Below, in pieces: positions 5,408 through 30,067 of a stretch of DNA of 64,000 nt. The position numbers and the translations under genes are program-made. The notes under the pieces were generated by a model. That model ran no database searches. It worked only from the letters and a program-made list of their open reading frames with translations, and was not told where the DNA came from. This DNA comes from Polyangiales bacterium (GTDB taxonomy: Bacteria; Myxococcota_A; Polyangia; Polyangiales; Houyiibacteriaceae), in NCBI GenBank assembly GCA_965227405.1, contig OZ245758.1, positions 1,385,693 to 1,449,692 on the forward strand. The letters are read 5' to 3'. Position 1 is the first letter of the stretch, and each line of letters starts with the position of its first letter.

Positions 5408-5553
5408 CGAACTGGTGAGCGTGTACCACGATCGCTGCTCAACCGACGGCTCCACACTACGCACAAGCGTAGGCTGCACCCCACGCCGACATCCTCAAAC
5501 CCTTGCAGAACCAGCAAAAACCGCAGGGCCCGTCGCTTGCAAAGGATCTCCCG

Positions 5554-11576: not shown

Positions 11577-13421
11577 TCAGCCGACCGGATTCACGAGCAC
11601 TTGCGCGCCCTGCGAACCGGTCACCTCGGCAATGCCGGTGACCTTGGGACCGTCTGCGCTCTTGGACACGTGCACGATCACCTGAACCGCGCGTGCCACA
11701 AGCGTGGCTGAAGTCTCAGGCGAGTGGCCGGAGAGCGTCGCCAAGAAGACCAAGGGGAAACCGGGGTCCTGCGTAGGCGCGGAGTTTGCGCCAAGGAAGC
11801 CGCCACCACCGTGGGAAGCCAGCGCTGCGAGAACATCAAACGCCGAAGCGTCTGCGACACCATCGACGAAGAGGTGGTCCACGCGCATGCGCGCGGCTTG
11901 GAGCGCCACCTGACCCACCGACACGCCGTTCGTCCCACCGCTGAGGTGCATGACGTGCGGCAGATCCAGCGTTGCGGTCGCACCACGACTCACGGCTGCA
12001 ACGCGATCACTCGGGTCGAGCAAACTGGCTAGCGACGCGATCAGCTCAGACACCTCCGAACCTTGCGGTCCGACGACCGCGATCGTCTTGTTGTTGGCAA
12101 CAGCCGCGCGCAACACCTGTGCACCGTCGCTCGAGAGCACGCCTCGGGCCACGAACGCATCGATGTTGGGTCCACCGCCACGACGAATCTCAACGATCGG
12201 TCCACCGACAGCAATGGGAGGCAGCATCGCGCTGACCTGACCACCTTGCGGCAACACGCCCTGAAGCATCGCGCCCTTGGGCGACGTGGGACCACGCGAG
12301 CAAAGACGACGCGCGATCACGCTGAGCATCGCAGCCGATGAGAAGTTGGCTTCGGAAGGCACGAGTCCTGCGCCCTTGTCGACGAGAACTTTCGATGGAC
12401 CTTCGACGACGATCTCCTTGATCGACGAGTCGCCGAGCAACGCTTCGAACGCACCCAAGCCCACGGCTTCGCGAAGTGCCGCCGCAGCAAGGTTGGCGTC
12501 GTTGGCATCGACTGCGCCGCCCTTGCCGAGCTCACGCATCACCTCCGCGATTGCTTTCTTCGCCGCGGATTGGCGGGTTTGATCCTGCACGCCGAGCGCG
12601 CTTCCGTCCTCGAGTCCGGGGAACGCGCTCTTCAACGCACCCATGACCGCAGGCAATCCCGTCGGTCCAGGAGCCACGGCGGGCGCAGGCTGCGGTTGTG
12701 CAGGCGAAGGCGATGGCGCGGGTGCACCGCTTCCGACAGAAGGTCGCGGCGCACGCGTCGGCGGCTCAGGCTCACGATCAAGCTGGAACTGATCCTGCGC
12801 TGGCGTAGGTTGAGGTGCGGGCTGCGCTGGCACCGCGGTAGGAGCCGGCGCAGGTTGCGGCTGTGGCGCGGGTTGCGGCGCGGCTTGAGGCTGCGGCGCA
12901 GAAGGAGGCGGACCGATGGGCTGCGGCGCCGGTTGCGGAGCAGCTTGCGGCGGCGGTGCGGCTTGAGGCGGCGGCGCAGCTGCAGGAGGCGGTCCGATCG
13001 GTGCGGGCGCTGCAGGTGCAGGTGCAGAAACCGCAGGTGCAGGCGCAGAAGGAGCAGGCGGAGGACTCGAACGCAGAGGCGGCGGACCAGGCCGCGGCGG
13101 TGCAGCCGCAGCATCCGGGTACGCAGCAGCACCCAAGTCCTCGACGGTCAGAATGAAGTCGCCGATGTAAACCTTGTCACCCGGCTTCACGACGAGCGGC
13201 GAGGTGATCTTGCGTCCGTTGACGTAGGTGCCGTTCGTGCTCTTCAGGTCCACCACAATGAAGCGGCTATCCTTCAGAACGATCCGACTGTGACGCTTGG
13301 AGACGTTTCCCTTCGGGAGAATGATGTCGTTGCCTTGAACGCGGCCAATTGTGACCTCGCTCTTGTCAAACTCCATCCGTCGTTGGGCCCCGCCCTTTTC
13401 GGTGATCACCACTGCGAACAT
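11577..13421 (-). CDS. FHA-domain protein fused to a degenerate CpaF/TadA (VirB11-like) secretion-ATPase domain (predicted pseudo-ATPase), with Pro/Ala/Gln-rich linker
   Basis: N-terminal FHA: TIGRVQGNDIILPKGNVSKRHSRIVL...STNGTYVNG. The C-terminal ~330 aa align to CpaF-like ATPases (SIKEIVVEGPSKVLVDKGAG...; MLPPIAVGGPIVEIRR). The Walker A position reads VVGPQGSEVS instead of GxxGxGKT. The Walker B/Glu box reads HLFVDGVAD. The His box reads HGGGGFLGANSA. Confidence 0.8.
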   Translation of the reverse strand: MFAVVITEKGGAQRRMEFDKSEVTIGRVQGNDIILPKGNVSKRHSRIVLKDSRFIVVDLKSTNGTYVNGRKITSPLVVKPGDKVYIGDFILTVEDLGAAAYPDAAAAPPRPGPPPLRSSPPPAPSAPAPAVSAPAPAAPAPIGPPPAAAPPPQAAPPPQAAPQPAPQPIGPPPSAPQPQAAPQPAPQPQPAPAPTAVPAQPAPQPTPAQDQFQLDREPEPPTRAPRPSVGSGAPAPSPSPAQPQPAPAVAPGPTGLPAVMGALKSAFPGLEDGSALGVQDQTRQSAAKKAIAEVMRELGKGGAVDANDANLAAAALREAVGLGAFEALLGDSSIKEIVVEGPSKVLVDKGAGLVPSEANFSSAAMLSVIARRLCSRGPTSPKGAMLQGVLPQGGQVSAMLPPIAVGGPIVEIRRGGGPNIDAFVARGVLSSDGAQVLRAAVANNKTIAVVGPQGSEVSELIASLASLLDPSDRVAAVSRGATATLDLPHVMHLSGGTNGVSVGQVALQAARMRVDHLFVDGVADASAFDVLAALASHGGGGFLGANSAPTQDPGFPLVFLATLSGHSPETSATLVARAVQVIVHVSKSADGPKVTGIAEVTGSQGAQVLVNPVG

Positions 13422-16486: not shown

Positions 16487-16573
16487 GGCGGCTGATGGCT
16501 GCAGGACACCCAGGAGGCGGCTGATGGCTGCTGGACACCCATCAGGCGGCTGATGGCTGCAGGACACCCATCA
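16487..16573. repeat. three tandem 29-bp direct repeats (GGCGGCTGATGGCTGCAGGACACCCAKSA) in the intergenic region upstream of the large Hsp70 gene
   Basis: Copies sit at 16487-16515, 16516-16544 and 16545-16573 with 1-3 mismatches. A partial inverted copy (CAGCCATCAGGCG) lies at about 16413-16428. Confidence 0.9.
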
Positions 16574-16636: not shown

Positions 16637-16888
16637 CTATTCCTCTTCAGAAGACGGTGTATTCGGCGTCAACCCGGCTGACGCGGGGCCCTTCGCCAAA
16701 ACCTCACGCAGCAACTCATTGAGCTCTGCCAGGAGCTCGTTCTGTTTCTTGGCCGTTTTGACCTGTTGACGCATCAGCTTCATCGCAGTGTCTTGTTTCC
16801 GAGACAGGGTGCGGATGCGAAGCATCGCGAACGTTGCAACGAGCGCCAGGAGGATCGCCCCCACAGAAAGAATCGCCTGGTTCTCCAT
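16637..16888 (-). CDS. possible small membrane protein (one TM helix plus amphipathic coiled-coil tail)
   Basis: MLGAMENQAILSVGAILLALVATFAML followed by KLMRQQVKTAKKQNELLAELNELLREVL. The start overlaps the CrtI-like ORF start at a CCATGG palindrome. Existence uncertain. Confidence 0.3.
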   Translation of the reverse strand: MENQAILSVGAILLALVATFAMLRIRTLSRKQDTAMKLMRQQVKTAKKQNELLAELNELLREVLAKGPASAGLTPNTPSSEEE

Positions 16889-18497
16889 GGCGCCGAGCAT
16901 ACTTGAAGCGCCCCTGGGTTGCCTCCAGAGTTCCAGGACACCCATCTTGATCTCATCGAAAACACACACGTTCTTGCCAACGGGCCGACTGATCCGTCCT
17001 GAAGACCGGCGCTCGGTTGCGCCGAACGCGCCACATGCAGTTGTCATCGGTGCTGGGTTCGGAGGGCTCGCCGCAGCAATCCGACTCAGCGTACGTGGCT
17101 ACCGTGTGACGGTTGTCGATAGATTGAGTCAGCCGGGTGGACGCGCTCGTGTACATCGAATCGACGGTTACACGTTCGACGCGGGGCCAACCTTGGTCAC
17201 CGCTCCATTTTTGTTCGAAGAACTCTGGGCACTGTGTGGCGAAGACCTGCACACGAGTGTGGATCTCCGACCAACCGAACCCTTCTACCGGATTCGATTC
17301 GACGACGGCGAGAGCTTCGAATACAGCGGCGACCTTGAGCGCATGCGAGCCGAGATCTCTCGCATTTCGCCACGCGATCTGGCGGGCTACGACGCATTTC
17401 TCGAGAAGAGCCGGGAAATCTACGAGGTCGGTTTTGAGCGACTCGGCCACACACCCTTCGGTCGACTGACTGATATGGCGCGAGTCGCTCCGGCGATGAT
17501 CTCGCTGGACAGCCATCTTTCGGTGCACCAACTGGTCGCACGATACATCCGCAACGAAAAGTTGCGGCAGGTTCTGAGTTTTCACCCGCTTTTGGTCGGT
17601 GGGAATCCGTACCAAACGACCAGTATTTATACGTTGATTGCCTATCTTGAACGTCGATGGGGAGTTTGGTTTCCCATGGGCGGTACGGGGAAACTCGTCG
17701 ATGGGATGGTCGCGTTGTTGCGCCGTCGCGGCGTTCGATTTCTGCAGGACACCCATGTTTCCGAGGTCGTTATCGTCGATGGATCGGCAACGGGAATCCG
17801 TCTCGAAGATGGGTCTGTCATCGACTCCGACATCGTGGTCAGCAACGCAGACTCCGCATGGATGTACCGGCATATGGTTCCATCGCAGTGGCGCAAACGC
17901 TGGACCAATCATCGCATCGACAACGCTGCGTACTCGATGAGCCTATTCGTCTGGTACTTCGGAACCTCGCATCAGTACGAAGATGTTGCGCACCACACGA
18001 TCATCCTTGGGCCCCGGTATCGCGGTTTGCTCAACGATATTTTCAAGCATCAACGGCTTCCTGACGACTTTAGCCTGTATCTGCACCGGCCAACTGCGAC
18101 CGACGCTTCGATGGCGCCACGTGGCTGCGATGCCTTTTACGTGCTCGCACCAGTCCCGCACCTCGATGCGTCCGTCGACTGGAACCAAGCGCAAGAACAC
18201 TACAGGACACGCATCGAACGGCATCTTGAAGCAACCGTGCTGCCGCGGTTGCGCTCACGTCTCACAGTCAGCAAATGCTTGAACCCCATCGGGTTTCGAG
18301 ATGACTACGCGTCGCTGAAAGGCGCGGCATTCGGTTTGCAACCTCAGTTGCTCCAGAGCGCTTACTTCCGTCCTCACAACCAGAGTGAGGACATCCAGAA
18401 TCTGTACCTGGTCGGGGCAGGCACCCATCCGGGAGCAGGGCTTCCCGGAGTCCTCAGCACCGCGCGAGTCCTCGATTCGATCGTGCCCGATCCGTAG
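16887..18497 (+). CDS. phytoene desaturase-family FAD-dependent oxidoreductase (CrtI/CrtD-like)
   Basis: Rossmann dinucleotide-binding motif VVIGAGFGGLAAAIRL...DRLSQPGGRA. The C-terminus GAGTHPGAGLPGVLSTARV is typical of the CrtI family. The true start may be the TTG at 16974. The ORF is open from 16788. Confidence 0.8.
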   Translation: MAPSILEAPLGCLQSSRTPILISSKTHTFLPTGRLIRPEDRRSVAPNAPHAVVIGAGFGGLAAAIRLSVRGYRVTVVDRLSQPGGRARVHRIDGYTFDAGPTLVTAPFLFEELWALCGEDLHTSVDLRPTEPFYRIRFDDGESFEYSGDLERMRAEISRISPRDLAGYDAFLEKSREIYEVGFERLGHTPFGRLTDMARVAPAMISLDSHLSVHQLVARYIRNEKLRQVLSFHPLLVGGNPYQTTSIYTLIAYLERRWGVWFPMGGTGKLVDGMVALLRRRGVRFLQDTHVSEVVIVDGSATGIRLEDGSVIDSDIVVSNADSAWMYRHMVPSQWRKRWTNHRIDNAAYSMSLFVWYFGTSHQYEDVAHHTIILGPRYRGLLNDIFKHQRLPDDFSLYLHRPTATDASMAPRGCDAFYVLAPVPHLDASVDWNQAQEHYRTRIERHLEATVLPRLRSRLTVSKCLNPIGFRDDYASLKGAAFGLQPQLLQSAYFRPHNQSEDIQNLYLVGAGTHPGAGLPGVLSTARVLDSIVPDP

Positions 18498-18578: not shown

Positions 18579-19529
18579 ATGACTCGCGCACGCTCCGAAT
18601 CCTACGACCTCGATTCAACCCCTTTCTACCACTGCATTTCGAGATGCGTACGCCGCGCATGGCTTTGCGGCCGCGACCCGTACACAGGACAAGACTTCGA
18701 ACACAGGAAAGACTGGATCGAAGAGCGTCTCTTCTTTCTCGCGGAGATCTTTGCCATCCAACTTTTTGCGTACGCGGTCATGTCCAACCACCTCCATATC
18801 GTGGTGCGAGTCGATCGCGCGTTGGCTCTGTCCTGGACCGACGAGGAGGTGGTCGAGCGCTACACGAGACTCTTCAAAAACTCCAAAGCGCGTCTGGATC
18901 CGCTGCCGAGTCACGCACGCAAGTCGCTGATCGCGTTGTGGCGCGAACGCCTTCACGATCTGTCTTGGATGATGCGCACGCTCAACGAGCACATTGCTCG
19001 GCGCGCCAACAAAGAAGACAACTGCACCGGCCGCTTCTGGGAGGGTCGCTTCAAGTCTCAACCGCTTCTCGATGAAACTGCGGTGCTCACATGCATGGCA
19101 TACGTCGACCTCAACGTCGTTCGGGCGGGCGAGGTTGAGTCGCTCGACGAAGCAATGCACACCTCGATCACGCGGCGGTTGAAATCGGCTCCGAGTGCGC
19201 CGCGCGGCCTCGCACCGTTCGAGGATCAAACTGGGAAGTCAGACATTGCGGTGCCCATGCATTTCCGCGACTACGTCGAGGTTCTCGAGTGGACGGGCCG
19301 GTGCTCACGCGCGTATGGACCCGGTGCACGCTTGCGCGGAAAACCGCCACAGCTTCTCACACAGCACAGTCTTGATTCGTCGACTTGGCTCGACACCATG
19401 CAAAGCCACGGTCTCTCCAAGCTTACCGCGCTGGGATCGACCTCAGAGATTGCCTCGTTTGCGACAAAGAAAGGTCGCACGTGGATCCGAGGAGCGGGTC
19501 TCGCCCGTGCTCGGACCTACCCTCGGTGA
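18579..19529 (+). CDS. HUH-family Y1 tyrosine transposase-like protein (IS200/IS605 TnpA-related long form, COG1943-like)
   Basis: HuH motif SNHLHIVV and the catalytic-Tyr region MAYVDLNVVRAGEV (YxxxNxVRAG). Also TGRFWEGRF. About 316 aa, so longer than minimal TnpA. No obvious terminal hairpins identified. Confidence 0.65.
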   Translation: MTRARSESYDLDSTPFYHCISRCVRRAWLCGRDPYTGQDFEHRKDWIEERLFFLAEIFAIQLFAYAVMSNHLHIVVRVDRALALSWTDEEVVERYTRLFKNSKARLDPLPSHARKSLIALWRERLHDLSWMMRTLNEHIARRANKEDNCTGRFWEGRFKSQPLLDETAVLTCMAYVDLNVVRAGEVESLDEAMHTSITRRLKSAPSAPRGLAPFEDQTGKSDIAVPMHFRDYVEVLEWTGRCSRAYGPGARLRGKPPQLLTQHSLDSSTWLDTMQSHGLSKLTALGSTSEIASFATKKGRTWIRGAGLARARTYPR

Positions 19530-19552: not shown

Positions 19553-20026
19553 GTGGATCGAACTGTATTGTTGATTCGTGCTTTTCGCGCTGCCGCGAAT
19601 CGGTTACGCGACGGGGCAACGTACAAGTGGTCGCACTACGCGATGTGCAACTGCGGCAACTTGGCGCAAGTGGTTACAGAGCTAGATCCTTCAACGATCT
19701 ATGAAGCGGCATTCGATCGTCCAGGCGACTGGGGTGAGCAAGCTCGTGAGTACTGTCCGACCAGTGGGCGCCCAATGGATTTGATTCTGCGGCAGATGTT
19801 GGACTTAGGACTCTTACCGGAGGACATCCGCCATATCGAACGGCTTTCGCATCCGCACGTGCTTCGTCGAATCGATCGCCGGCGCAAACCTCTTCACCAT
19901 GCTCGTCGAGAAGACTGCGTGTTGTTCTTCGAAACATGGGCAACGATGCTGGAGGAGAGATTGTCAGACACCCAGCTGGCTGAACTCGCAGAACTCGATC
20001 GTGCTCCGCTTGCCGTGGCGAGCTAA
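19553..20026 (+). CDS. hypothetical protein (GTG start)
   Basis: ORF immediately downstream of the transposase-like gene. No recognizable domain. Slightly lower local GC. Confidence 0.4.
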   Translation: MDRTVLLIRAFRAAANRLRDGATYKWSHYAMCNCGNLAQVVTELDPSTIYEAAFDRPGDWGEQAREYCPTSGRPMDLILRQMLDLGLLPEDIRHIERLSHPHVLRRIDRRRKPLHHARREDCVLFFETWATMLEERLSDTQLAELAELDRAPLAVAS

Positions 20027-20044
20027 GGACAGCCACAAAAACGG

Positions 20045-20719
20045 TCAGAAACCTCGACCGAGCGTCTCGATTCGCACGACCCGGCCATCTTCAAACGTCA
20101 CACGGCGCATGAAACGAAGCGGACCGAAGTTGTACACCCACGTTTCGACTTGAACGGCGCGTTGGGCGGTCTGCACGACCCCCTCTACAGGCGCAACCGT
20201 CACGCCTGTTTGAACAACACGCGAGTTTTGCTCAGTTGGCTCACCCCAAGTTGCCCGGACGCGGGATGGTGAGTGTCCCAATCTCACGTCGTACGCTCGT
20301 GTGCCCAGTTGATCAGGCGGAAAGCCGCGACCCAACGTTTCAACGGTGTTCACCACCCCATCCTGAAACTCAATGCGGACCATGAAACGCTGGGGTCCAA
20401 AGTTGAGTGTCCACGTCTCGATGGTCGAGGTCACACTCCTGCTGAAGATGGCACCGAACTGCGCCTGATGGATTGTTCGCTGGTCGACGCGGACAGCCAC
20501 ATCAACGGGATCTCCGCAGCGCGCACGCACCTCTGCTTGGGTGTCTCCTCGATCGATCAAGTGGGTTCCGCATCGAAGAGCGCTCGCCTCGGCTTGAAAA
20601 ATGAACGAGGCCGCAAGCGCTGCCAGCGCTGCGGCGAGTTTGATGGGTGTCCTTGGGCTAAGCCGCATCATTCCTGAACGATGAACTCCCTCTCGCCTCG
20701 GGACAACGAGGGGATCCAC
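20045..20719 (-). CDS. secreted protein with two tandem ~85-aa repeats (DUF2845-like)
   Basis: Signal peptide AALAALAASFIFQAEA. Repeat units end IETWTLNFGPQRFMVRIEFQDGVVNTVETLGRGF and VETWVYNFGPLRFMRRVTFEDGRVVRIETLGRGF. Confidence 0.6.
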   Translation of the reverse strand: MDPLVVPRREGVHRSGMMRLSPRTPIKLAAALAALAASFIFQAEASALRCGTHLIDRGDTQAEVRARCGDPVDVAVRVDQRTIHQAQFGAIFSRSVTSTIETWTLNFGPQRFMVRIEFQDGVVNTVETLGRGFPPDQLGTRAYDVRLGHSPSRVRATWGEPTEQNSRVVQTGVTVAPVEGVVQTAQRAVQVETWVYNFGPLRFMRRVTFEDGRVVRIETLGRGF

Positions 20720-20723
20720 CTGT

Positions 20724-21551
20724 TCACGTCATGGCCAACCGCATTTCATCGGCGCTCTGATACCGCTCGGTCGGATTCTTGCGAATCGCCTTCATGACCA
20801 CGCGATCCACGCGTGGATCCAACGACGGTCGGACAGTCGAGGGTGGAGGCGGAAAATCCTCCAAGATGGTGCGAAACACCTCTTCCACAGGTCCCTCAAC
20901 GGGCGGAAACGCACGCTGCCCAGTCAGCAGTTCGTAGGCCAAAACGCCGGCGCCATACACATCCGTCCTCGCATCGACGGGATCTGCAAGGATCTGCTCG
21001 GGAGACATATAACTGGGTGTCCCGAGAGCTTCCTGCGGCTTGGTGAGCGTGGTGGTCGGGGTCAGTCGGTCCAGATCCTTGCTCAAACCAAAGTCGATCA
21101 CCTTCACAACACCTTCACTTGTGATGAAGACGTTTGATGGCTTGAGATCCCGATGAACCACGCCCCCGTCGTGGGCGGCCTGCACACCACGAAGCACCGA
21201 AACGATGATCTTGCGTGTCCTGGGAACCAACATCGGCCCTTCTCGCAAGGTGGCCAATAGGGTGTCCCCCACCAGCAGCTCCATCACGAGAAACGGGGTC
21301 TGGTCCACCACGCCTGCATCGTAGGTTTCGACGACGTTCGGGTGCTTCACCTGCGCGGCCAACCGAGCCTCACGGACAAAACGCCGATGCAGGGTGTCTG
21401 TGTTCAGGTGTTCAGCCAGAACCTTCACAGCCACCGGTCGGCCAAGATGGGTGTCCCAGGCTCGATGAACCACCGACATCCCGCCTTTGGCGAGGACCTT
21501 TTCCAGCCGGTAACGGTCAAGCAAGACTTCGCCTGCGCTAAACCGGCTCAC
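20724..21551 (-). CDS. Hanks-type Ser/Thr protein kinase, catalytic domain only (275 aa)
   Basis: LAKGGMSVVHRA, AVKVL, HRDLKPSNVF, DFGLSK, GTPSYMSPEQ. Four bp downstream of the Hsp70-like gene, so probably an operon. Confidence 0.85.
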   Translation of the reverse strand: MSRFSAGEVLLDRYRLEKVLAKGGMSVVHRAWDTHLGRPVAVKVLAEHLNTDTLHRRFVREARLAAQVKHPNVVETYDAGVVDQTPFLVMELLVGDTLLATLREGPMLVPRTRKIIVSVLRGVQAAHDGGVVHRDLKPSNVFITSEGVVKVIDFGLSKDLDRLTPTTTLTKPQEALGTPSYMSPEQILADPVDARTDVYGAGVLAYELLTGQRAFPPVEGPVEEVFRTILEDFPPPPSTVRPSLDPRVDRVVMKAIRKNPTERYQSADEMRLAMT

Positions 21552-21554
21552 GCT

Positions 21555-23366
21555 TCACTCTCGTACGTCGAGTTCGACTTTCCATACGTGCTCACCCCCA
21601 CGACTGAGGGCTTCGAGCACAAGAGTACCTAACTCCGACACTCGACCGCGAAGACGAACGGGAACCACTTCACCAGGCGAGTTCCCCTCCGTTGGCAATG
21701 TGGCCTCAATCTGCCCCAACTCCACGAGTTCGTCGTCGTTCCACCGCTCGAGCAACGCGCCTGTGTCGTCGTCCCTTCGCACGGACGAACCAAAGAATCG
21801 AAACCGCACGGGCTCCCCAACGACCAAACCCAGTTCCTGCGGCGGTGCTTGCGAGGCACTGCCCTCTTCCAACCCAAAGGGTGCAACACACAGCGCGTGA
21901 ATCGGTGGCTCGATCCCCGGAACGGCGGGAGCTGCTGTCTCCACACCCACATAAAACGCCTGCGCCATTCCTCCACGAATGCGCACTCCGCCACCCTGTC
22001 GAACGTACCCGTAATACGCCGCACCACGCGCCACGGCACCATCCAGATCAGCGCCCTCAAGCACGCGTGCAGCCGGTGCGCCATCGCTTTCCAACCACTT
22101 TGTGATCAACGCCTCCACACGCTTTGCGATCACCGGTGCCTTGAACACACCACCGTTGAACAGGATCGCAGTCGGATGCAGAAACGCGGCGTCTGGTGAC
22201 ACATCAAACAGGTCCGCGGTTGCATTCACCTGTCGGCTCAAGAACGCAGCGAGGTGACGCGTGATCGCCGCATCCTGCGCGTACGGAAGCCCCAACTGGG
22301 TCAACGCACTTCGCGCACGCGTCTTCGGCTTCGAGTCCACGCCCACATCCGGGAAGAAACCCTCCAACACAACGGCTTCCACATCTGCGCGCGTCAACTC
22401 CGTGCGCAACGAACCACCGATCAACTTGCTGCCTCGGCTGGGCACCACAATCGGAACGCTGTCCGCCTTCCCGGCCAACAAGATCTCTTTCGCGCTTCGG
22501 CAGCTCTGCGTGATCGCGCGTACCTGCCAGTCATCGAGCTTCTTGCCCTCGGCTTCGAGCTTCGCTTTCACGGTGTAGCCCAAGGCGAGATCCATGTTGT
22601 CGCCGCCGAGCAAAATGTGGTCGCCCACGGCAACCCGTTCCAACTGCAGCGCACCCTCACTCTCGTGCACCGCAATCAGCGAGAGGTCGGTGGTTCCACC
22701 ACCCACATCAACCACAAGAATCACGTCGCCGACGTTCAGCTTGTCGCGCCACTCACCTCGGGTCTGTTGAATCCACGCGTAGAGCGCAGCTTGGGGCTCT
22801 TCGAGAAGCGTCAGGTTCGCGTACCCAGCTTTTTGGGCAGCCTCCGCCGTCAGTTCGCGCGCCGCGGGGTCGAACGACGCGGGAACCGTCAGCACGACCT
22901 CTTGATCCGCAAAGGGTTCCCCGGAATTCGCATGGTCCCAAGCCGCTTTGAGGTGCGCGAGGTACTGCACCGAAGCATCCAACGGGCTTAGCCGCGTGAC
23001 GTCGTCCGGTGCATCTGTCGGTAGGATCGGACCACGACGGTCGACCGCCGTATGACCCAGCCAGGACTTCGCGCTCGCAACCAAACGAATGGGTGTCTTG
23101 GCGCCAAGCACTCGCGCCAACTCGCCCACGACGTACGAGGGTGTCGCGTTCCACGGCAAGCTCGATGCACCACGGGCGAGTTCCGTGTCGTGTGGAAGAT
23201 AGAGAAAGCTTGGCAGCAACGTGCGCCGCTCCACTTCCGCTGGAGCGATCGCTTGATCGATTCCAAACGGTTGAAGCGCGACCTCTTCGCCTTCACTCAG
23301 ATCCAAATCCAACGCAGACAACGCACAGTGCGTCGTTCCAAGGTCGACACCGAGTACGAACGTCAC
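21555..23366 (-). CDS. Hsp70-family (DnaK-like) ATPase-fold protein, paralog of 13552-16386
   Basis: VLGVDLGTTHCALS, QEVVLTVPASFDPAARELT, LLEEPQAALYAW, ILVVDVGGGTTDLSLIAV. The start is taken at GTG 23366 (V47 of the longer ORF), which overlaps the upstream gene. Confidence 0.8.
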   Translation of the reverse strand: MTFVLGVDLGTTHCALSALDLDLSEGEEVALQPFGIDQAIAPAEVERRTLLPSFLYLPHDTELARGASSLPWNATPSYVVGELARVLGAKTPIRLVASAKSWLGHTAVDRRGPILPTDAPDDVTRLSPLDASVQYLAHLKAAWDHANSGEPFADQEVVLTVPASFDPAARELTAEAAQKAGYANLTLLEEPQAALYAWIQQTRGEWRDKLNVGDVILVVDVGGGTTDLSLIAVHESEGALQLERVAVGDHILLGGDNMDLALGYTVKAKLEAEGKKLDDWQVRAITQSCRSAKEILLAGKADSVPIVVPSRGSKLIGGSLRTELTRADVEAVVLEGFFPDVGVDSKPKTRARSALTQLGLPYAQDAAITRHLAAFLSRQVNATADLFDVSPDAAFLHPTAILFNGGVFKAPVIAKRVEALITKWLESDGAPAARVLEGADLDGAVARGAAYYGYVRQGGGVRIRGGMAQAFYVGVETAAPAVPGIEPPIHALCVAPFGLEEGSASQAPPQELGLVVGEPVRFRFFGSSVRRDDDTGALLERWNDDELVELGQIEATLPTEGNSPGEVVPVRLRGRVSELGTLVLEALSRGGEHVWKVELDVRE

Positions 23367-23379
23367 AACTGCACCGCGA

Positions 23380-23955
23380 TCAAAGCTCGACCTCAGCGGG
23401 CGCGACCACCGACAAGTCGTGCCCCGCAGCAACTTTCGGCAAGCGCACCTCCGCAATCTTCCAACCGCGATGTTGCAACGTTCCCTTGAACGGCGGCTCG
23501 CCAACCACGTTTCCGGTCACGCGAACCTCGGTCGCGTCGAATCCCTTCGGGAGCTCCACCGACGTTCCCTCTTCCTCAGACCGCACGGGTGTAACGTCAA
23601 AGTGCTCGGCCAGCGCTTTCTTGCACCCTTCGTGCACGACGCGTGCAGCAGCGCCAATGTCGGAGTCGGAAAACGCAGACACGTCTTCTTCCAAAAAGTC
23701 GATGAACCGACCTTCGCGTTGCAAGAGACCAAGCAGTTGAAGCGCAGCATCGGGTGTCGCTTCCACGACGGGAGGCGGTTCGGGTTCAGGCTCTGGCTCG
23801 GGCTCAGGGGCCGGCAATGCAGGCTCGCCCTGCATGAGCTGTCTCACAGAGGCACCCAGGTCCGCTGAGAACAGAACGCGTAGTGCGAGGCCAAAACGCG
23901 CGAAGAAGGAAGGCTTCCGTTCCAATGCTCGTAACTCCTGGCGCGGCTGTAGCAC
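23380..23955 (-). CDS. DUF2760-like protein (Hsp70-associated small protein)
   Basis: About 190 aa with an N-terminal hydrophobic FFARFGLALRVLF, a PEPEPEPEPEPP linker, and a conserved C-terminal domain (LQREGRFIDFLEEDV...GNVVGEPPFKGTLQHRGWK). Sits directly upstream of the Hsp70-like gene. The family assignment is from memory of the DUF2760 context. Confidence 0.5.
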   Translation of the reverse strand: MLQPRQELRALERKPSFFARFGLALRVLFSADLGASVRQLMQGEPALPAPEPEPEPEPEPPPVVEATPDAALQLLGLLQREGRFIDFLEEDVSAFSDSDIGAAARVVHEGCKKALAEHFDVTPVRSEEEGTSVELPKGFDATEVRVTGNVVGEPPFKGTLQHRGWKIAEVRLPKVAAGHDLSVVAPAEVEL

Positions 23956-24055: not shown

Positions 24056-24658
24056 ATGAAGAGTCTCAGCGTTGCGATTGGACTGCTCCTGGCCGTTGGA
24101 TGCGGCGGAAACGAAGCGGAGCAACAGCAACAAGCGAACGAGCAGGCGGAAGCCCTGGCCAACCAGCTGGGTGCCGCCCTTAACATGGCAGCGGAACAGG
24201 CGCAGCAGCAGCAAGCAGCGCAGCCTGCTCAGGCCGCTCAGCCCGCCGGTGATTCGAACTTCGGCACCGTGAGCCTGAACCCGGGCTTCATGCCGGATCC
24301 GCACACCGCGTCCGGTACCTCGGGCGGCGCCACCGACGCCACCACGCTCGGCACCGCCGGCTGCGTTGGCTACATCGCCGGTACCCCGGACCACCTGTTC
24401 AACGCGACTGGCGCGTTCTCGAGCCTTCGCGTCATGGCGCACTCCACCGCCGACATCACCCTCGTGATTCAGAAGCCCGACGGAAGCTACGTCTGCGACG
24501 ACGACACCGACGGCACCAACCCGCTCGTCGAGGCCCCCTTCCCGGCCGGCGTGTACAAGGTCTGGATCGGAAGCTACGAGCAGGGCACCAACTCGCCCTA
24601 CACGCTCGGATTCTCGGAGCTTAGCTCCAGCACCCCCAGCTCGCTGGCAGGTGGCTGA
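24056..24658 (+). CDS. lipoprotein with Gln/Ala-rich linker and C-terminal beta-sandwich (PPC-like) domain
   Basis: Lipobox LLAVGC; QQQ/AQPAQAAQPA linker; C-terminal ITLVIQKPDGSYVCDDDTDGTNP...GVYKVWIGSYE. Confidence 0.5.
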   Translation: MKSLSVAIGLLLAVGCGGNEAEQQQQANEQAEALANQLGAALNMAAEQAQQQQAAQPAQAAQPAGDSNFGTVSLNPGFMPDPHTASGTSGGATDATTLGTAGCVGYIAGTPDHLFNATGAFSSLRVMAHSTADITLVIQKPDGSYVCDDDTDGTNPLVEAPFPAGVYKVWIGSYEQGTNSPYTLGFSELSSSTPSSLAGG

Positions 24659-24691
24659 TCACTCGAGTTCAACTCGTTTGAAGGAGACTTG

Positions 24692-24722
24692 GGCCGTTCT
24701 TTCGGGAACGGCCTTTCTCTTT
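24692..24722 (+). terminator. rho-independent terminator (8-bp GC stem GGCCGTTC/GAACGGCC followed by TTTCTCTTT)
   Basis: The hairpin is at 24692-24713, followed by a T-rich tract. It lies 34 bp after the stop of the 24056-24658 gene. Confidence 0.6.
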
Positions 24723-24796
24723 GCTCTCAAGACACCTGTTCAAGAAGCAAAGATCCATCCCTTCTCGCGCGTCGTACCTCACGCCGGATATAGTTC

Positions 24797-26458
24797 GTGA
24801 CGATGGATTCTGCCCAAGAGCTCGACCCGAAGGTCGGCATGATGTTGCAGGACCGCTATCGCGTCGTGCGCAAGCTCGGCGAGGGCGGAATGGGCGCGGT
24901 CTACGAAGGCGAGCACGTGCTCATCAAGAAGCGCGTCGCGATCAAGTGTTTGCACCCGCAGTTCGCGAAGAACCCCGAAGTTGTCGCTCGCTTCCACCGC
25001 GAAGCACACGCCGCCACGAGCATTGGCCACGAGAACATCATCGAGGTCACGGACATGGGTCGTTTCGACGACGGCACTGTGTTCATGGTTCTCGAATTTC
25101 TCGAGGGTCGCGATTGGAGCGACGACATTGAGAGTCACGGTGCACAACCTCTCGGTCGTGTGGTTCGGATCATGTCGCAAGTCTGCGACGCGCTGGATGC
25201 CGCCCACTCGAAAGGAATCGTTCACCGCGATCTCAAACCGGAGAACATCTATCTAATTTCACGAGGTGGAAACTCGGACTTCGTGAAGGTGCTCGACTTC
25301 GGCATCTCGAAGTTCAAAGACCCCAACGGGCCAAACAAGTCGATGACCCAAACGGGCACCACGCTTGGCACGCCCTACTACATGTCCCCGGAACAAGCGC
25401 AGGGACGCAAAGACGTCGACGCGCGCGCGGACATCTACTCACTCGGAGTCATTCTCTTTCAAGCACTGACGGGGCAGTACCCGTTCGACGACGATTCGTA
25501 CCCGATGCTTGTGTTGAAGATCTGCACGGAGCCCGCTCCTTTGGCGCGCACGTTTCGTCCCGATCTGCCCGAGGAAGTCGAAGCGATCATCGCGCGTTTG
25601 CTCAGCAAGGATCCAAACGAGCGGTTTCAAGACTGTGGCAGCCTCAAAGCAGCGCTCGCGCCCTTTGCAGAGGCCGATGCAGCACCGGTTGTCGCGGATG
25701 CCCCTTCGACGAAAGGCGCGCAATCGTCGGTTCTCGGCAAAGCCGCTTCCGGTGTTCGCCCGCGCGATCAAGAAGGATTTCCGAGCCAGCCGTACGACCA
25801 GAGTGCCTTCACTCCGCCGACCAAGAGCCGTCTCCCACTGATCGTGGGTGGTGCACTGATTCTTCTCCTCGGAGCGGGTGCTGCCATCGCCGTCGGATCG
25901 GGTGCGTTCTCGAGTGACCCCGAACCAGTCGTCCCTCCAAGGGTGCTTCCGCAACTGCCGACACAGCCAACGACCATGGCGGAAGAGCGGGTCGCGGTGA
26001 ACATCACGACGCTCGACGAAGCGGGTCAACCTCTCGCTGCAGACCTTTTTCTCGACGGGTCACCGATTCGGAACCCGTTTCAGGGCCAGCTTCCTCGACG
26101 CCTGTTTCGCGTCGAAGCGCGCAAGGATGGGTACACAAGCGTGATCCAGGACATGAACCTGGAGTTCGACGCCGGTGGCGAACTCACGCTGCGGATGGAG
26201 CGTGGTTCGGGCACGGACGACCGTCGAAGCTCGATGCGAACGGCACGAATGACGTCGATGTCCTCCATGCAGGCGACCACAACGATGGAGACGCCCACCA
26301 CGATGGAGGCAGCGCCAACAATGCGTGAGCGGCCGCAACAGACGGTCACGGTGACGGAGCCTCCCCCAGTCATGGAACCTGCGATGCAGGAGGCCCCCAT
26401 GACCTCCGAGCCGGCGACGATGATGGATTCGATCATCCGGCTCAGCGGCATGATCTGA
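24797..26458 (+). CDS. Hanks-type Ser/Thr protein kinase with TM helix and C-terminal PEGA-like domain
   Basis: LGEGGMGAVYEG, VAIKCL, HRDLKPENIYL, DFGISKF, GTPYYMSPEQ. TM is LPLIVGGALILLLGAGAAIAV. PEGA-like segment FLDGSPIRNPF...RVEARKDGY. Confidence 0.9.
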   Translation: MTMDSAQELDPKVGMMLQDRYRVVRKLGEGGMGAVYEGEHVLIKKRVAIKCLHPQFAKNPEVVARFHREAHAATSIGHENIIEVTDMGRFDDGTVFMVLEFLEGRDWSDDIESHGAQPLGRVVRIMSQVCDALDAAHSKGIVHRDLKPENIYLISRGGNSDFVKVLDFGISKFKDPNGPNKSMTQTGTTLGTPYYMSPEQAQGRKDVDARADIYSLGVILFQALTGQYPFDDDSYPMLVLKICTEPAPLARTFRPDLPEEVEAIIARLLSKDPNERFQDCGSLKAALAPFAEADAAPVVADAPSTKGAQSSVLGKAASGVRPRDQEGFPSQPYDQSAFTPPTKSRLPLIVGGALILLLGAGAAIAVGSGAFSSDPEPVVPPRVLPQLPTQPTTMAEERVAVNITTLDEAGQPLAADLFLDGSPIRNPFQGQLPRRLFRVEARKDGYTSVIQDMNLEFDAGGELTLRMERGSGTDDRRSSMRTARMTSMSSMQATTTMETPTTMEAAPTMRERPQQTVTVTEPPPVMEPAMQEAPMTSEPATMMDSIIRLSGMI

Positions 26459-26477
26459 TGGTGGTACGCTCCGCGTC

Positions 26478-27446
26478 ATGGCACGTGGATGGTGGGTGAT
26501 CCTCCTCTTGCTGGCGTCCTCGGCGGTTGCTCAACCGCCCGCAGAGACGCCTGCAGAGACTAGCGAAGAGCAGCCTGAAGAAGAGGTGGTCCCACCGCAG
26601 GACCCGCCTCAATTGGTCGAAGCACGTGAGCGCATTGCGCGAGCGGAAACGCTGTTTGATTCGGAGAGCTACGACGCGGCGCTCGCCGAGTTCCAGCGCG
26701 CACTCGAGTTGCTTGAGGGCCACGAGATGCGCTTCTTCGTCCTCTTCAATATCGGGCGTTGCCAGGAAAAGCTGTTTCGATACTCGGAAGCCATGGCGAG
26801 CTACCGCGGGTTCCTCGACCAAGGGGGTGCAGACACCGAGTACGCGCCGCAGGTCACCGCGAAGATCGATCTGCTTGAAGGCTTGCTCGGAACCGTTCGC
26901 GTGTCGGTGAACATCCAGGGGTACGAGCTCTGGGTGGATGACCGCATGATCGGCACCGACGAAACCGAGATTCTCCTTCCCGGCGGATCGCACGTCGTGG
27001 AGGTTCGTGCGGAGGGCTACGTCCAAGCGCAGCAGCAGGTCGATGTTGTCGCGCGCGACGAGTCGCAGCTCACGTTTGAGATGGAGGAGCTCGCCGAAGA
27101 GTTTGAAGGACTGCATCCGGGACTCTTCTGGACGGGTGTGGGCGTCACGGTGGTCGCGCTCGCCGGTGGAATCGCGTTTGGTGCTCAGGCGCTCAGCCGA
27201 AGCAACGACGTCGATTCACGCGATCCGTCCATCGCGACGAGCGCGGAAGTCGACGACATCAAGAGTTCTGCCCGAAACGCTGACATCCTGTTTGGCGTGG
27301 CGGCATTGGCTGCGACCACCACCGTCATCTTTGCCGTGTTTACCAACTTCGGCGGCGATAGCAGCGACGATGACGAAGCGAGTATTCGGATCCAACCTGC
27401 CGCCGGGCCCGGTGGTGCAGGCCTCAACGTTCAGGGGTCGTTCTGA
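26478..27446 (+). CDS. secreted TPR-like plus PEGA-domain protein with C-terminal TM anchor
   Basis: Signal peptide. TPR-like region YDAALAEFQRALELLEGH...RCQEKLFRYSEAMASY. PEGA-like segment VSVNIQGYELWVDDRMIGT...VRAEGY. TM is LFWTGVGVTVVALAGGIAFGA. Starts 20 bp after the kinase stop. Confidence 0.6.
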   Translation: MARGWWVILLLLASSAVAQPPAETPAETSEEQPEEEVVPPQDPPQLVEARERIARAETLFDSESYDAALAEFQRALELLEGHEMRFFVLFNIGRCQEKLFRYSEAMASYRGFLDQGGADTEYAPQVTAKIDLLEGLLGTVRVSVNIQGYELWVDDRMIGTDETEILLPGGSHVVEVRAEGYVQAQQQVDVVARDESQLTFEMEELAEEFEGLHPGLFWTGVGVTVVALAGGIAFGAQALSRSNDVDSRDPSIATSAEVDDIKSSARNADILFGVAALAATTTVIFAVFTNFGGDSSDDDEASIRIQPAAGPGGAGLNVQGSF

Positions 27447-30067
27447 TGCGCACGTACCTTCTCGCGATTGGAACTCTGGTCACCGGCTGCAGCGCCTTGG
27501 GCTTGGATGACTTTGATCGGTGTGACGAACTTGGCGAAACCGCACTGGAACAGGAAGCTGCATGTGCAGGCGGCTTGAACGCAGAGTTCGGCTTCCCGGC
27601 AAGCTGTCGCCCCTTTCGTTGTGTCGATGGCGAGTGCGTTTTGGAACGAGACGTCGAACTTTGCGACGGCTCGGACAACGACTGTGATGGCTCCGTGGAC
27701 GAAGCCGTGTTCGCGCCCTCTGGGTTTGGAGGCGTGCAGTACGGTGAAACGCCCTCGATCCTAAGCGTTGCGTCGACCGGAACTGAGGCTCGCGCGTTTT
27801 GGACCGAGATCCCCTCGCGCGAAGCATCGACCGTCGCGGTTTCGCCGCTCATTGGCGAAATCGCAAACGCGGTGACGTACGCGCGCCACGCCGACACCGA
27901 CGAAGACGGTATCGATGACGGAAGTCTGGCGAACACAATGGTGGAAGAGGGCTGCTGGCAACAAGAAGTGATCGTCGAAATGGCTGAAGCGGGTCGACCA
28001 GAGATCCGAATCGACAACTGCAACGCGGACCAAGTCGTTGCTGCGGCAACGGGCTCACACACTTTTGCTGCCGCGATCAGCACACGTGGGTGTCCTCAAG
28101 GACGCGTGCGCTTCGCAGAAGTCAACGAAGGCTCACAGCTTCGAGTCGTGGGTCCCGCAGGACGTAGCAACAGCTTTTTGGGTGTCGGACTTACCCAAGA
28201 CGGAGTCTGCTCGGCGGCGGATCCCGACGCCTGTGCGGCAGCGCGCGCTGCGGTAACGAACGTGGGGTCGAACGATCTCTGCGTCGACTCTCCGTGCGCG
28301 GGCAGTGAGGAATGCGTCTGCGGCCGTTGTGTGAGCCCAGAGCAGGCCGTGGTGTTGCGCGAGTGCGGATTCACCGATGTCGCCGTCGATGTGGTGCAAA
28401 CCCCTCGTGGAGGTTCAGCGGAAGCGCATGCACTCGTTGCCGGTGTCGGCGGTTCCCGAACCGCACAGTGTGCTCTCGACACGCCCCGACCCATCGCGGT
28501 GTGGGGCGCGTTTATTCAGCAGGAGAGTGGTGTCTCCCACATCAACGCCACCGATGAGGGAACGCCACTCGTCATCGGTGAAACAAACGGGTTCGGCGCG
28601 CCCGGTGTGGCAGGAGCAGGCGACGCCTTCGTGGTCGCGTTTCCGAACACCGACGGAGGCGGAACTGTCTCCGTGATTGGACCGTTGGCCGAGCCCGGCG
28701 CGACAGACCTGACGGGGTGCGAAACGGGCGTTGCAGGTGCGTGCGGTGAAACAATGCCGCAGCGAAGCCGGTGTTTGTTCCCCGAGTGCGGCTCTGACGT
28801 CGGCGTCTGTCAAAGCGGTCAAGCACGCTGCAGCAACGGCGTGAGCTTCTGCTTCGGTGTGCGCGACCCGGATGTCATCGAACAGTGCGACAACATGCTC
28901 GACGACGACTGTGACGGCCGCACGGACGAAAGCGATTGTGGCACTTGCACAGCGACAGCCGAGATCTGCAACGCGATCGATGATGATTGCGATGGAATGG
29001 TCGACGAAGAGGTCACCGATACGTTGGAGGGCGCTGCGCTTGGCGAAACTTGTGGTAGCGACGTGGGCGTCTGCGAGTTCGGTACGGTCGCGTGCACCGG
29101 CGGAAAACTGCACTGCGACGGAGGCGTGATCCCGCGCACGAACGGAACGGGGAACTTGAGAGACTTGTGCAGCAACGGAGAAGACGACGACTGCGACGGG
29201 ATGGTCGACGAGGCGACTTGCGACGCAGAGTGCGTCCCCGCCGTGCCTCCGCGTGAAACGTGCGATGGAGACGATGACGACTGCGACGGGCTGATCGACG
29301 AAACGCGCATCGTCGGACCGGCGTGTGACGCCATGACCGAGTGCCCCACAGGCAACCAGCTTTCGTGCATTGATGGTATGTGCGCGGAAGCCGCGCAGCC
29401 GCCGGGCACAAACGACACTCCCGAGCGATTTGTTCAGCCTGCGCGCAGCCGAACGCTCGCCGGTGTGCGTGAGTGCATCGCCACCGATCCCCTTGCAAGT
29501 CCCAGCGAATCGACGGTCTCGTTCAGCGCCGATGGGTTGGACCATTTCGTCCTCGCGACTGGCGGTTCGACCGACGACTCGCTGGCCGTTGCTCTCGCCT
29601 GGACCGAGGGTGAAGGAGCCCACGTGGCGGTTCGCGTACTCACCATGGATGCGACATGCACCTGCCGCGACGGAACCGCATGCTCAGACGAAATGTCCTG
29701 TGAGCGTGTGGTCACGCCGACAGGGTTGCGCGACGCAGGCTCAGTCCAACGGGTGAGCACGAGCGCAGGAAACTACGGCCCGCCCACCATCGCCTATGCA
29801 CCTACCGGTTTTGCTGCCGAGGGTGACACCGGCGGCTGGTTCGTCATCTGGGCGGATCGCTCCGCACCAAACCAGATCCTCGCCACACGCGTGGCCGCAG
29901 ACGGGAGTGTTCTCGACATGCCGTTCCCCGCAGGACGCAACATGATGGGTGAAGAACTGCCGGTCGCGTTCAGCGTGGACTCAGGTGTGGGGTACGCGTA
30001 CGTGGATCGCGTGACAGGCGAGGTCGTTTCGGCGCGGATGCAATGCCCTCCGCCTGCTGCGGAGTAA
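27446..30067 (+). CDS. large secreted lipoprotein with multiple MopE-type putative metal-binding repeats (Cx...DDDCDGxxDE)
   Basis: Lipobox LVTGC. Repeated motifs CDGSDNDCDGSVDE, LDDDCDGRTDE, IDDDCDGMVDE, EDDDCDGMVDE, DDDDCDGLIDE. The start ATG overlaps the previous stop (TGATG). Confidence 0.75.
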   Translation: MRTYLLAIGTLVTGCSALGLDDFDRCDELGETALEQEAACAGGLNAEFGFPASCRPFRCVDGECVLERDVELCDGSDNDCDGSVDEAVFAPSGFGGVQYGETPSILSVASTGTEARAFWTEIPSREASTVAVSPLIGEIANAVTYARHADTDEDGIDDGSLANTMVEEGCWQQEVIVEMAEAGRPEIRIDNCNADQVVAAATGSHTFAAAISTRGCPQGRVRFAEVNEGSQLRVVGPAGRSNSFLGVGLTQDGVCSAADPDACAAARAAVTNVGSNDLCVDSPCAGSEECVCGRCVSPEQAVVLRECGFTDVAVDVVQTPRGGSAEAHALVAGVGGSRTAQCALDTPRPIAVWGAFIQQESGVSHINATDEGTPLVIGETNGFGAPGVAGAGDAFVVAFPNTDGGGTVSVIGPLAEPGATDLTGCETGVAGACGETMPQRSRCLFPECGSDVGVCQSGQARCSNGVSFCFGVRDPDVIEQCDNMLDDDCDGRTDESDCGTCTATAEICNAIDDDCDGMVDEEVTDTLEGAALGETCGSDVGVCEFGTVACTGGKLHCDGGVIPRTNGTGNLRDLCSNGEDDDCDGMVDEATCDAECVPAVPPRETCDGDDDDCDGLIDETRIVGPACDAMTECPTGNQLSCIDGMCAEAAQPPGTNDTPERFVQPARSRTLAGVRECIATDPLASPSESTVSFSADGLDHFVLATGGSTDDSLAVALAWTEGEGAHVAVRVLTMDATCTCRDGTACSDEMSCERVVTPTGLRDAGSVQRVSTSAGNYGPPTIAYAPTGFAAEGDTGGWFVIWADRSAPNQILATRVAADGSVLDMPFPAGRNMMGEELPVAFSVDSGVGYAYVDRVTGEVVSARMQCPPPAAE

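Follow-up and report, generated by a model that had tools for sequence, protein, structure and literature searches.

What is the functional unit when a gene for an Hsp70-like ATPase is followed almost immediately by a gene for a Ser/Thr kinase that consists of a catalytic domain and nothing else? The question is raised by four genes at positions 20045–23955 of a 64,000-nt stretch of DNA from a Polyangiales bacterium (Houyiibacteriaceae; GCA_965227405.1, contig OZ245758.1, positions 1,385,693–1,449,692, forward strand). This whole stretch is hereafter called the window, and all positions below are given in its coordinates. A reading made from the letters alone (the original prediction) had proposed that a DUF2760-like protein, an Hsp70-like ATPase, a kinase and a secreted repeat protein are encoded there in a single operon, and that the window carries two distinct pairings of an Hsp70 with phospho-signalling. 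We find instead that three of the four genes form the upstream half of a five-gene unit, DUF2760-Hsp70A-[kinase]-Hsp70B-[FHA], that has since been split. In one Myxococcota clade the kinase gene was inserted between the two Hsp70 genes, and a gene for an FHA-domain protein follows Hsp70B; in the window, genes on the opposite strand later split the two halves, and the gene for the repeat protein, a member of the DUF2845 family, arrived beside the kinase only recently.

Results

Window proteins were assigned to families by Pfam, with scores compared to the gathering cutoffs. The listing of open reading frames (ORFs) places four of them head to tail within 20045–23955, all on the minus strand as had been proposed, in the order DUF2760, Hsp70A, kinase, DUF2845 protein; the run is limited at one end by a divergent lipoprotein gene (24056, +) and at the other by a convergent gene (19553–20026, +). 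With corrected start codons, 13 bp separate the DUF2760 and Hsp70A genes and 3 bp the Hsp70A and kinase genes; the DUF2845 gene likely begins about 52 bp, rather than 4 bp, after the kinase gene.

The limits of the unit emerge from comparison with other genomes. Loci were taken from the neighbourhoods of DUF2760 homologs; a DUF2760 alignment, searched against one genome for each species, supplied 80 more. They were annotated by searching their six-frame ORFs with the window proteins, and are numbered with the prefix L. In all 75 assessable loci, which represent different species, an Hsp70A ortholog lies directly downstream of the DUF2760 gene and on the same strand; this bears out the proposal that the family occurs next to Hsp70-like genes. 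The gene that follows Hsp70A encodes Hsp70B, a second Hsp70 paralog with a DUF3731 domain, in 53 of 66 loci, and across the core loci the two families keep lengths of ~610 aa (Hsp70A) and ~940 aa (Hsp70B). The conserved unit is DUF2760-Hsp70A-Hsp70B, and its surroundings are variable: all-versus-all clustering of flanking ORFs gave no conserved fourth gene, only LysR regulators here and there and synteny confined to particular lineages; the 140 deduplicated neighbours scanned with Pfam were heterogeneous and mostly housekeeping; and no J-domain or GrpE gene was seen beside the core. This core was found in Burkholderiales, Rhodocyclales, Methylococcales, Chromatiales, Acidobacteriota (Thermoanaerobaculia) and Myxococcota (L007, from Trinickia, is one example), and its proteins are 58–66% identical to those of the window even across phyla (Myxococcota versus Betaproteobacteria). 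The window genes are clear members of the DUF2760/Hsp70 clusters of the databases (PF10816, PF00012 and PF12531, the last named 'DNA-K related protein') and keep the same order; they differ from these clusters in the kinase inserted between the Hsp70s, in the appended FHA gene and in a split of ~4.3 kb.

The kinase gene is adjacent to Hsp70A in ten loci (the window, L001, L003, L008, L056, L169, L171, L172, L174 and L175), with kinase identities of 50–86%. Counted among the loci with at least 70% identity to the window in Hsp70A, the window included, the neighbourhood of kinase and Hsp70 to which the original prediction drew attention is kept in 10 of 12 close relatives, and all catalytic motifs are invariant. 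Among the ~70 loci outside this Myxococcota clade, no kinase gene adjoins Hsp70A. The point of insertion is the Hsp70A-Hsp70B junction, which elsewhere measures 17–27 bp (L007, L176).

The downstream half of the unit was recovered from the same comparison. In L003 and L172, DUF2760, Hsp70A, kinase, Hsp70B and FHA genes lie contiguously and in this order on one strand, and L008 is arranged likewise as far as its contig reaches; the Hsp70B ortholog of L003, contiguous with the kinase, is 75% identical to that of the window. In the window itself, Hsp70B and the FHA gene lie 4.3 kb downstream of the kinase of the four-gene run, on the same strand, and the two Hsp70 genes are not directly adjacent, being ~5.2 kb apart with the kinase gene, the DUF2845 gene and three opposite-strand genes between them. 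Since nothing interrupts the order in L003 and L172, the two pairings that had been taken for distinct are halves of one ancestral operon. FHA orthologs follow Hsp70B in L003, L018, L025, L172 and L175 as well as in the window; since L018 and L025 have the FHA gene and no kinase, the association with FHA is somewhat broader in Myxococcota than that with the kinase.

The three genes that part the halves, all on the plus strand, encode a CrtI-like amine oxidase assigned by Pfam (16788–18497), a 316-aa Y1/IS200-like transposase-like ORF (18579–19529; a borderline Pfam match of 23.4 bits against a cutoff of 23) and a 157-aa ORF (19553–20026). In L056, L171, L174 and L175 the amine oxidase is found at this place in the gap and in the same direction, which makes this part of the split old; in the corresponding gap, relatives lack the transposase-like ORF.

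The fourth gene of the run has a different history. Its product (20045–20671, minus strand, in an ORF that extends to 20719) is a protein with a signal peptide and two DUF2845 repeats, the family that had been proposed for it: PF11006 matches in two stretches at 123.8 bits (cutoff 21; E 3.6e-36), and both repeats end ETWxxNFGPxRFMxRxxFxDGxVxxxETLGRGF. The likelier start is the ATG at 20671, which is preceded by GGGAG and followed by the signal peptide MMRLSPRTPIKLAAALAALAASFIFQAEASA. The gene is present in 2 of the ~95 loci examined, the window and the closest relative, L001, where a tblastx comparison places it on the strand opposite to the operon and convergent with the kinase; no other relative with the kinase has it. 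Thus, of the four-gene synteny that had been predicted, the DUF2760-Hsp70A-kinase order is kept in relatives, but the fourth member is not, and the four genes together are not a conserved operon. The DUF2845 gene is a recent neighbour rather than a component of the module, co-transcribed here at most by accident.

The DUF2760 protein (181 aa; 23380–23925, minus strand, in an ORF that extends to a GTG at 23955) had been assigned correctly in the original prediction: PF10816 matches residues 68–190, profile positions 2–124 of 124, at 187.2 bits against a cutoff of 25 (E 1.1e-55). Translation probably starts at the TTG at 23925, because the homologs are 181 aa long and begin MERKPSFF; with a shorter gene call, such as the 151-aa one in L168, a conserved N-terminal segment would be lost. 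The alignments show this hydrophobic and basic segment (PSFFxRxxLAxxxxxRVLF), then a Pro/Glu-rich linker and the conserved C-terminal domain, all three of which had been described for the window protein. In the AlphaFold2 model (pLDDT, the predicted local distance difference test, 80), two N-terminal helices cover the segment and the C-terminal domain is alpha/beta; the N-terminal helix is moderate in hydrophobicity and hydrophobic moment and is not a transmembrane helix. In almost every one of the 150 best representatives of the family, the domain runs to the C-terminus of the protein, and in the alignments the tail AEVEL is invariant, as are H98, C101, H152 and H169, with H108 nearly so. No GrpE likeness in sequence or profile was detected by Pfam (no GrpE match), by a PDB profile search (empty at E up to 10) or by hhalign (probability 0.85%), nor was a metal-binding or redox fold detected. 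The family comprises ~1,790 clusters at 50% identity, at an E value of 1e-10 or better. Like Hsp70A and the kinase, the protein is predicted to be cytoplasmic, whereas the DUF2845 protein is exported.

Hsp70A (603 aa; 21555–23366, minus strand, GTG start at 23366) is a lidless Hsp70 paralog on the evidence of Pfam and of its AlphaFold2 model, and the gene call is backed by an identical 603-aa database protein (P0121). PF00012 covers the nucleotide-binding part only, at 62 bits (cutoff 20.6; E 4e-17). The catalytic phosphate-1, phosphate-2, connect and adenosine motifs of an actin-like nucleotide-binding domain (NBD) are present, and DLGTT, SAKSW, EEPQAA, DVGGGTTD, GGDNMD and NGG are invariant among 60 homologs. 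The model (pLDDT 84.6) shows the NBD followed by an all-beta region at residues 470–599; it ends in beta strands at residue 599 of 603, with no C-terminal helices that could make up an alpha-helical lid. Foldseek aligned it to full-length ATP-state DnaK over ~630 columns (E 1e-26, TM score 0.62). On the strength of the model, Hsp70A carries a predicted beta-sandwich substrate-binding domain (SBD) of the DnaK type after the NBD, without a lid; by sequence this domain went undetected, as hhalign of the Hsp70A profile against Escherichia coli DnaK aligned the NBD alone. Hsp70A lies below the equivalog cutoffs for DnaK (TIGR02350, 61 versus 822 bits) and HscA (TIGR01991, 85 versus 708 bits). HscA is the best-scoring equivalog model for the NBDs of both Hsp70s, with both proteins far under the cutoffs.

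Hsp70B (944 aa; 13552–16386, minus strand) consists of an NBD, an SBD-like region and a C-terminal DUF3731 domain (PF12531, 321 bits, E 7e-96; PF00012, E 4e-14), and its alignment to DnaK shows that the Hsp70 ATPase motifs are retained. It shares with Hsp70A the motif SAKSWL.H..VDR, which is absent from DnaK, and on account of such shared motifs the two are paralogs born within the system. DUF3731 gave no sequence match to solved structures. The protein ends in a conserved FG(E/D)(S/A)LPxGL(R/K)L (13552–13600 in the window; loci L011–L086), which we take to resemble the LPPVK motif of IscU that is bound by HscA; by this analogy, the tail of Hsp70B could serve to bind an Hsp70 of the same system.

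The kinase (275 aa; 20724–21551, minus strand) is a stand-alone Hanks-type Ser/Thr kinase with Pkinase as its sole Pfam domain (PF00069, 158 bits against a cutoff of 31.7, E 3e-46), and the original statement that it lacks a sensor domain is correct. It reaches 291 bits against the 450 required by the PASTA kinase model NF033483, has neither a transmembrane segment nor PASTA domains, and ends at residue 275. The ten orthologs are all 275–295 aa long, and the Gly-loop, K43, E61, HRD133-135, N140, DFG153-155, T170, T178, SPE and R263 are invariant among them. A database search at 46% identity or more gave ~48 clusters, which all come from Myxococcota assemblies and, with few exceptions, measure 275–300 aa; matches under ~45% identity are ordinary multidomain kinases. 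In a metagenome scan with the kinase, no ortholog turned up, and the generic kinases matched did not exceed 45% identity.

The FHA-domain protein (614 aa; 11577–13421, minus strand; PF00498, E 6e-18) carries its FHA domain at the N-terminus, with the GR, SxxH and NG motifs that hold the phosphothreonine (pThr)-binding residues. A Pro/Ala-rich linker of ~150 residues joins it to a C-terminal region; this T2SSE/CpaF-like half is matched weakly by Pfam (E 5.5e-4), and its degenerate Walker A motif, GPQGSEVS, suggests a pseudo-ATPase scaffold. ARAGORN calls a tRNA-Ala(GGC) at 12794–12873 (+) inside the coding region of the linker, on the opposite strand and within GC-rich tandem repeats; the call is probably a false positive.

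Discussion

How might the proteins of this split operon act together? Because the three core genes are tightly linked, have no J-protein or GrpE gene beside them and persist in variable surroundings, their products may be pictured as a chaperone or remodelling machine that is self-contained and works without a J-protein, in which two Hsp70 ATPases would cooperate and DUF2760 would be their dedicated cofactor. The hydrophobic and basic N-terminal segment of DUF2760 and its AEVEL tail could dock on the substrate-binding or helical domains of the Hsp70s, its folded domain would contact an NBD, possibly in a GrpE-like manner, and Hsp70B would act on Hsp70A as Hsp110 does on Hsp70. In the kinase-bearing clade, the sensorless kinase would be bound or controlled by the chaperone module and would phosphorylate a threonine, either its own invariant T170 or one in a module protein; the FHA protein would read the pThr mark and so couple the state of the chaperone to a downstream output. 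The composite as a whole, a J-protein-independent dual-Hsp70 machine with a DUF2760 cofactor and, in this clade, pThr control, is the reading that we prefer, and we regard it as quite possible, if somewhat short of probable. Its broadest form would make the module an unrecognised class of chaperones, in which the two Hsp70s act on each other in the way of Hsp70 and Hsp110, a GrpE-like DUF2760 replaces both J-protein and exchange factor, and the pThr-gated variant is the first bacterial Hsp70 system with a writer and a reader of its own; so much at once strikes us as unlikely.

Several known systems resemble parts of this composite. In HscA/HscB/IscU and HscC/DjlC, as here, a dedicated Hsp70 paralog with a shortened or absent lid is encoded beside its own small partner, and HscA gives the best score to the NBDs of the window; the present module differs in having two Hsp70s, no J-domain protein, and DUF2760 rather than HscB or DjlC as the partner. 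The pairs Hsp70-Hsp110 and Ssb-Ssz1/Zuo1 also join two Hsp70-family ATPases of unequal length, of which the longer, with C-terminal helical extensions, serves as cofactor of the shorter; in comparison with Hsp70-Hsp110, however, the homology is confined to the Hsp70 fold, and DUF3731 has no sequence match to a solved structure. For the signalling arm, the PknB-type kinase/FHA pairs of Actinobacteria and Myxococcota are the closest comparison, in that an intact Hanks kinase and an FHA protein with intact pThr-binding residues belong to one ancestral operon. Unlike those pairs, the kinase here has no transmembrane, PASTA or sensor domain, the operon is a chaperone operon, and the module includes no phosphatase.

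A number of observations weigh against the preferred composite. Its core is not always complete, as in 13 of 66 loci, mostly Sandaracinaceae, DUF2760-Hsp70A occurs without an adjacent Hsp70B; in the window itself, Hsp70B and the FHA gene are no longer in the transcription unit of the kinase. Within the clade, the kinase is missing from L170 and L173, and in L169 it has been inverted together with the amine oxidase, although its adjacency to Hsp70A is kept there. No Ser/Thr columns specific to the kinase-bearing clade were found in DUF2760 or Hsp70A; Hsp70B has four, which rest on four sequences only. As we read these alignments, the lack of such columns neither supports nor excludes phosphorylation of DUF2760 or Hsp70A. 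Finally, the window holds at least four kinases and Myxococcota genomes are kinase-rich, which bears on the background chance of finding a kinase near any gene and means that part of the adjacency could be inherited synteny.

Much of this would be expected if the kinase were a syntenic passenger, inserted by chance in the ancestor of a kinase-rich clade, kept by descent and functionally unlinked to the core. Its restriction to the one clade with Hsp70A at least 70% identical, its absence from the ~70 other loci and from L170 and L173, its inversion in L169, the lack of clade-specific phospho-acceptor columns and the presence of several other Ser/Thr kinases in the window all fit such a history, and an amine-oxidase gene unrelated to the module is equally well kept in the same gap. 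However, the adjacency persists where kinase identity has fallen to 50%, through repeated rearrangement of the flanks and through an inversion, and the insertion lies inside a junction that otherwise spans 17–27 bp. Moreover, what has been kept is a bare catalytic domain, all of whose motifs are under purifying selection and which needs a partner for input and specificity, and an FHA reader is kept at the other end of the same operon. We therefore consider the passenger explanation somewhat unlikely, although it survives better than any other alternative to the composite.

Alternatively, DUF2760 could be the client of the two Hsp70s rather than their cofactor: a sensor or switch, for example one responsive to redox state or metals through its invariant His and Cys residues, whose activity or membrane association is set by the Hsp70s and whose state is relayed, in this clade, by the kinase. 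Such arrangements exist, in that sigma-32 is controlled by DnaK and IscU is handled by HscA. The invariant H98, C101, H152 and H169 and the nearly invariant H108 would suit a switch, and the N-terminal RFGLALRVLF of DUF2760, hydrophobic in the middle with Arg on both sides, resembles the kind of site that DnaK binds. In addition, the NBDs score best against models of HscA, an Hsp70 with a single client, and in Myxococcus xanthus deletion of atypical Hsp70 genes, which may or may not be orthologs of those in the window, lowers oxidative resistance (PMC8265645). Against this, DUF2760 has no recognisable output domain, and no metal-binding or redox fold was detected in it; the need for two different Hsp70s is left unexplained, and the support is as indirect as that for a cofactor. 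A client role is, in our judgement, quite unlikely.

One could also envision the core as a mobile conflict or anti-phage module, with the kinase and FHA protein as its infection-signalling arm. The core is patchily distributed across phyla at very high identity and in variable contexts, and it has been found on plasmids. On the 110-kb conjugative Bradyrhizobium plasmid pCC829_3 (L176, 8276–14125), all three core genes lie by trb genes and are preceded by a MarR gene; on the Thiodictyon megaplasmid pTs485 (L177, 1–14100), a DUF2760-Hsp70 pair lies among DUF1156, VapC, PLD-type anti-phage, Uma2 and TIR genes. The closest parallel is CnuD of the CoCoNuT systems, an Hsp70 NBD/SBD protein with HEAT-like repeats that is encoded, often with kinase triads, in McrBC systems (PMC11090510). 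CnuD resembles Hsp70B in architecture, with a helical domain added to the NBD and SBD, and it shares with it an association with Ser/Thr kinases and an occurrence in Myxococcota. Other features differ: the McrB, McrC, HEPN, vWA and PP2C genes of the CoCoNuT and TerY-P systems are lacking here, and the ATPase motifs of CnuD are degenerate, whereas those of Hsp70A and Hsp70B are intact. Indeed, Pfam scans of window genes between 900 and 35400 found no McrB, McrC (DUF2357), vWA or PP2C gene, nor did these figure among the top families of the 140 neighbours.

When six window proteins were searched against PADLOC-DB 2.0, DUF2760, DUF2845 and FHA proteins had no match, the two Hsp70s matched one candidate model, PDC-M61B, only weakly (2.6e-5 and 4.8e-4), and the kinase matched the PD-T4-6 and mad6 kinase models, which reflects generic kinase-domain similarity. 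Defence models (JetD, SspH, mad8 and two candidates) were matched by ~5 of the 140 deduplicated flanking ORFs; this shows no defence-island enrichment, in a survey whose greedy ORF calls are crude, whose sensitivity is limited and which had no matched control set. The Bradyrhizobium and Thiodictyon loci thus stand as two isolated hints of mobility and defence that the survey of neighbours did not generalise. The core is absent from 50,697 phage records, and the module includes no nuclease, NADase, pore or other effector. A role in defence is accordingly one that we hold to be decidedly improbable.

The last alternative, a true four-gene operon in which the secreted DUF2845 protein is the output or partner of the cytoplasmic unit, has in its favour that the gene is co-oriented, at a spacing of 4–52 bp, that a terminator-like site is seen at its stop codon but none ahead of it, and that it is also adjacent in L001, but a gene found in 2 of ~95 loci, on the opposite strand in one of them, missing from the other kinase-bearing relatives and encoding an exported protein where the other three are cytoplasmic leaves this explanation largely refuted by comparative synteny and hardly credible.

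In the library searched, no paper was found that mentions DUF2760, DUF3731 or their Pfam or InterPro identifiers (matches to the identifiers were Plasmodium gene names only); DUF2845 is mentioned once, in a genome report. A 2026 review describes bacterial DnaK derivatives as unexplored "dark matter" and proposes Hsp110-like cofactor roles for them (PMC13580251). The M. xanthus stk locus, which encodes the 540-aa DnaK homolog StkA together with SCP2-like StkB and PhaE-like StkC, was considered as a relative and set aside as unrelated, being without DUF2760, DUF3731 and kinase genes (PMC4319316).

That DUF2760 and DUF3731 are tied to Hsp70 is already recorded in Pfam; what is new is a variant of the dual-Hsp70 cluster equipped with a kinase and an FHA protein. 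The core is a widespread, database-annotated and unstudied chaperone-like set, which the comparisons made here delimit precisely. Its variant offers an experimental handle, because the adjacent chaperones are the only plausible inputs or targets of a kinase without a sensor, and the FHA protein could be used to fish for the phosphorylated partner. Were the cofactor and Hsp110-like model true, cooperation between Hsp70s and a phospho-regulated Hsp70 cycle, both deemed eukaryotic, would have evolved in bacteria as well; were it wrong, the module would still be a well-delimited target for functional genomics in tractable bacteria with the core genes, for instance Burkholderia, Paraburkholderia and Sandaracinus.

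Other features of the region

A terminator-like hairpin with a T-run (20042–20060, minus strand) overlaps the stop codon of the DUF2845 gene, and the number of such hairpins in the region equals the shuffled expectation and is not above chance; the promoter scan gave no sigma-70-like site, and the Rfam scan of the window no RNA family.

Between Hsp70B and the amine-oxidase gene, 100–190 bp upstream of the Hsp70B start, lies a tandem repeat of three 29-bp units (16487–16573; perfect to 96%; GGCGGCTGATGGCTGCAGGACACCCATCA). The units may be a regulatory element, or an array of regulator-binding sites, for the downstream half of the split operon; alternatively, given the Y1 transposase-like ORF nearby, they could be an element like the REP (repetitive extragenic palindromic) sequences. 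Also upstream of Hsp70B and co-oriented with it is a small ORF (16637–17047, minus strand; ~84 aa from MENQAIL) with a transmembrane helix and a coiled coil; no counterpart was seen at the same position in L171 or L175.

On the other side, the operon faces a divergent block on the plus strand (24056–30067), which encodes a lipoprotein, a membrane Ser/Thr kinase, a PEGA/TPR protein and an 873-aa MopE-like Cys-rich protein. The lipoprotein (~200 aa; 24056–24658, +; no Pfam match) and the membrane kinase (553 aa; 24797–26458, +) are kept across the clade as divergent neighbours. The block lies beside or near the DUF2760 operon in L056, L169, L171, L174 and L175, and the lipoprotein gene is directly divergent from the operon in L001, L003, L008, L087, L172 and L173; this constancy reflects either function or merely inherited synteny. 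Elsewhere in the window are genes for an RCC1-repeat protein (577 aa; 3746–5479, minus strand) and for at least two further Hanks kinases (909–2330 and 45384–46988, both on the minus strand).

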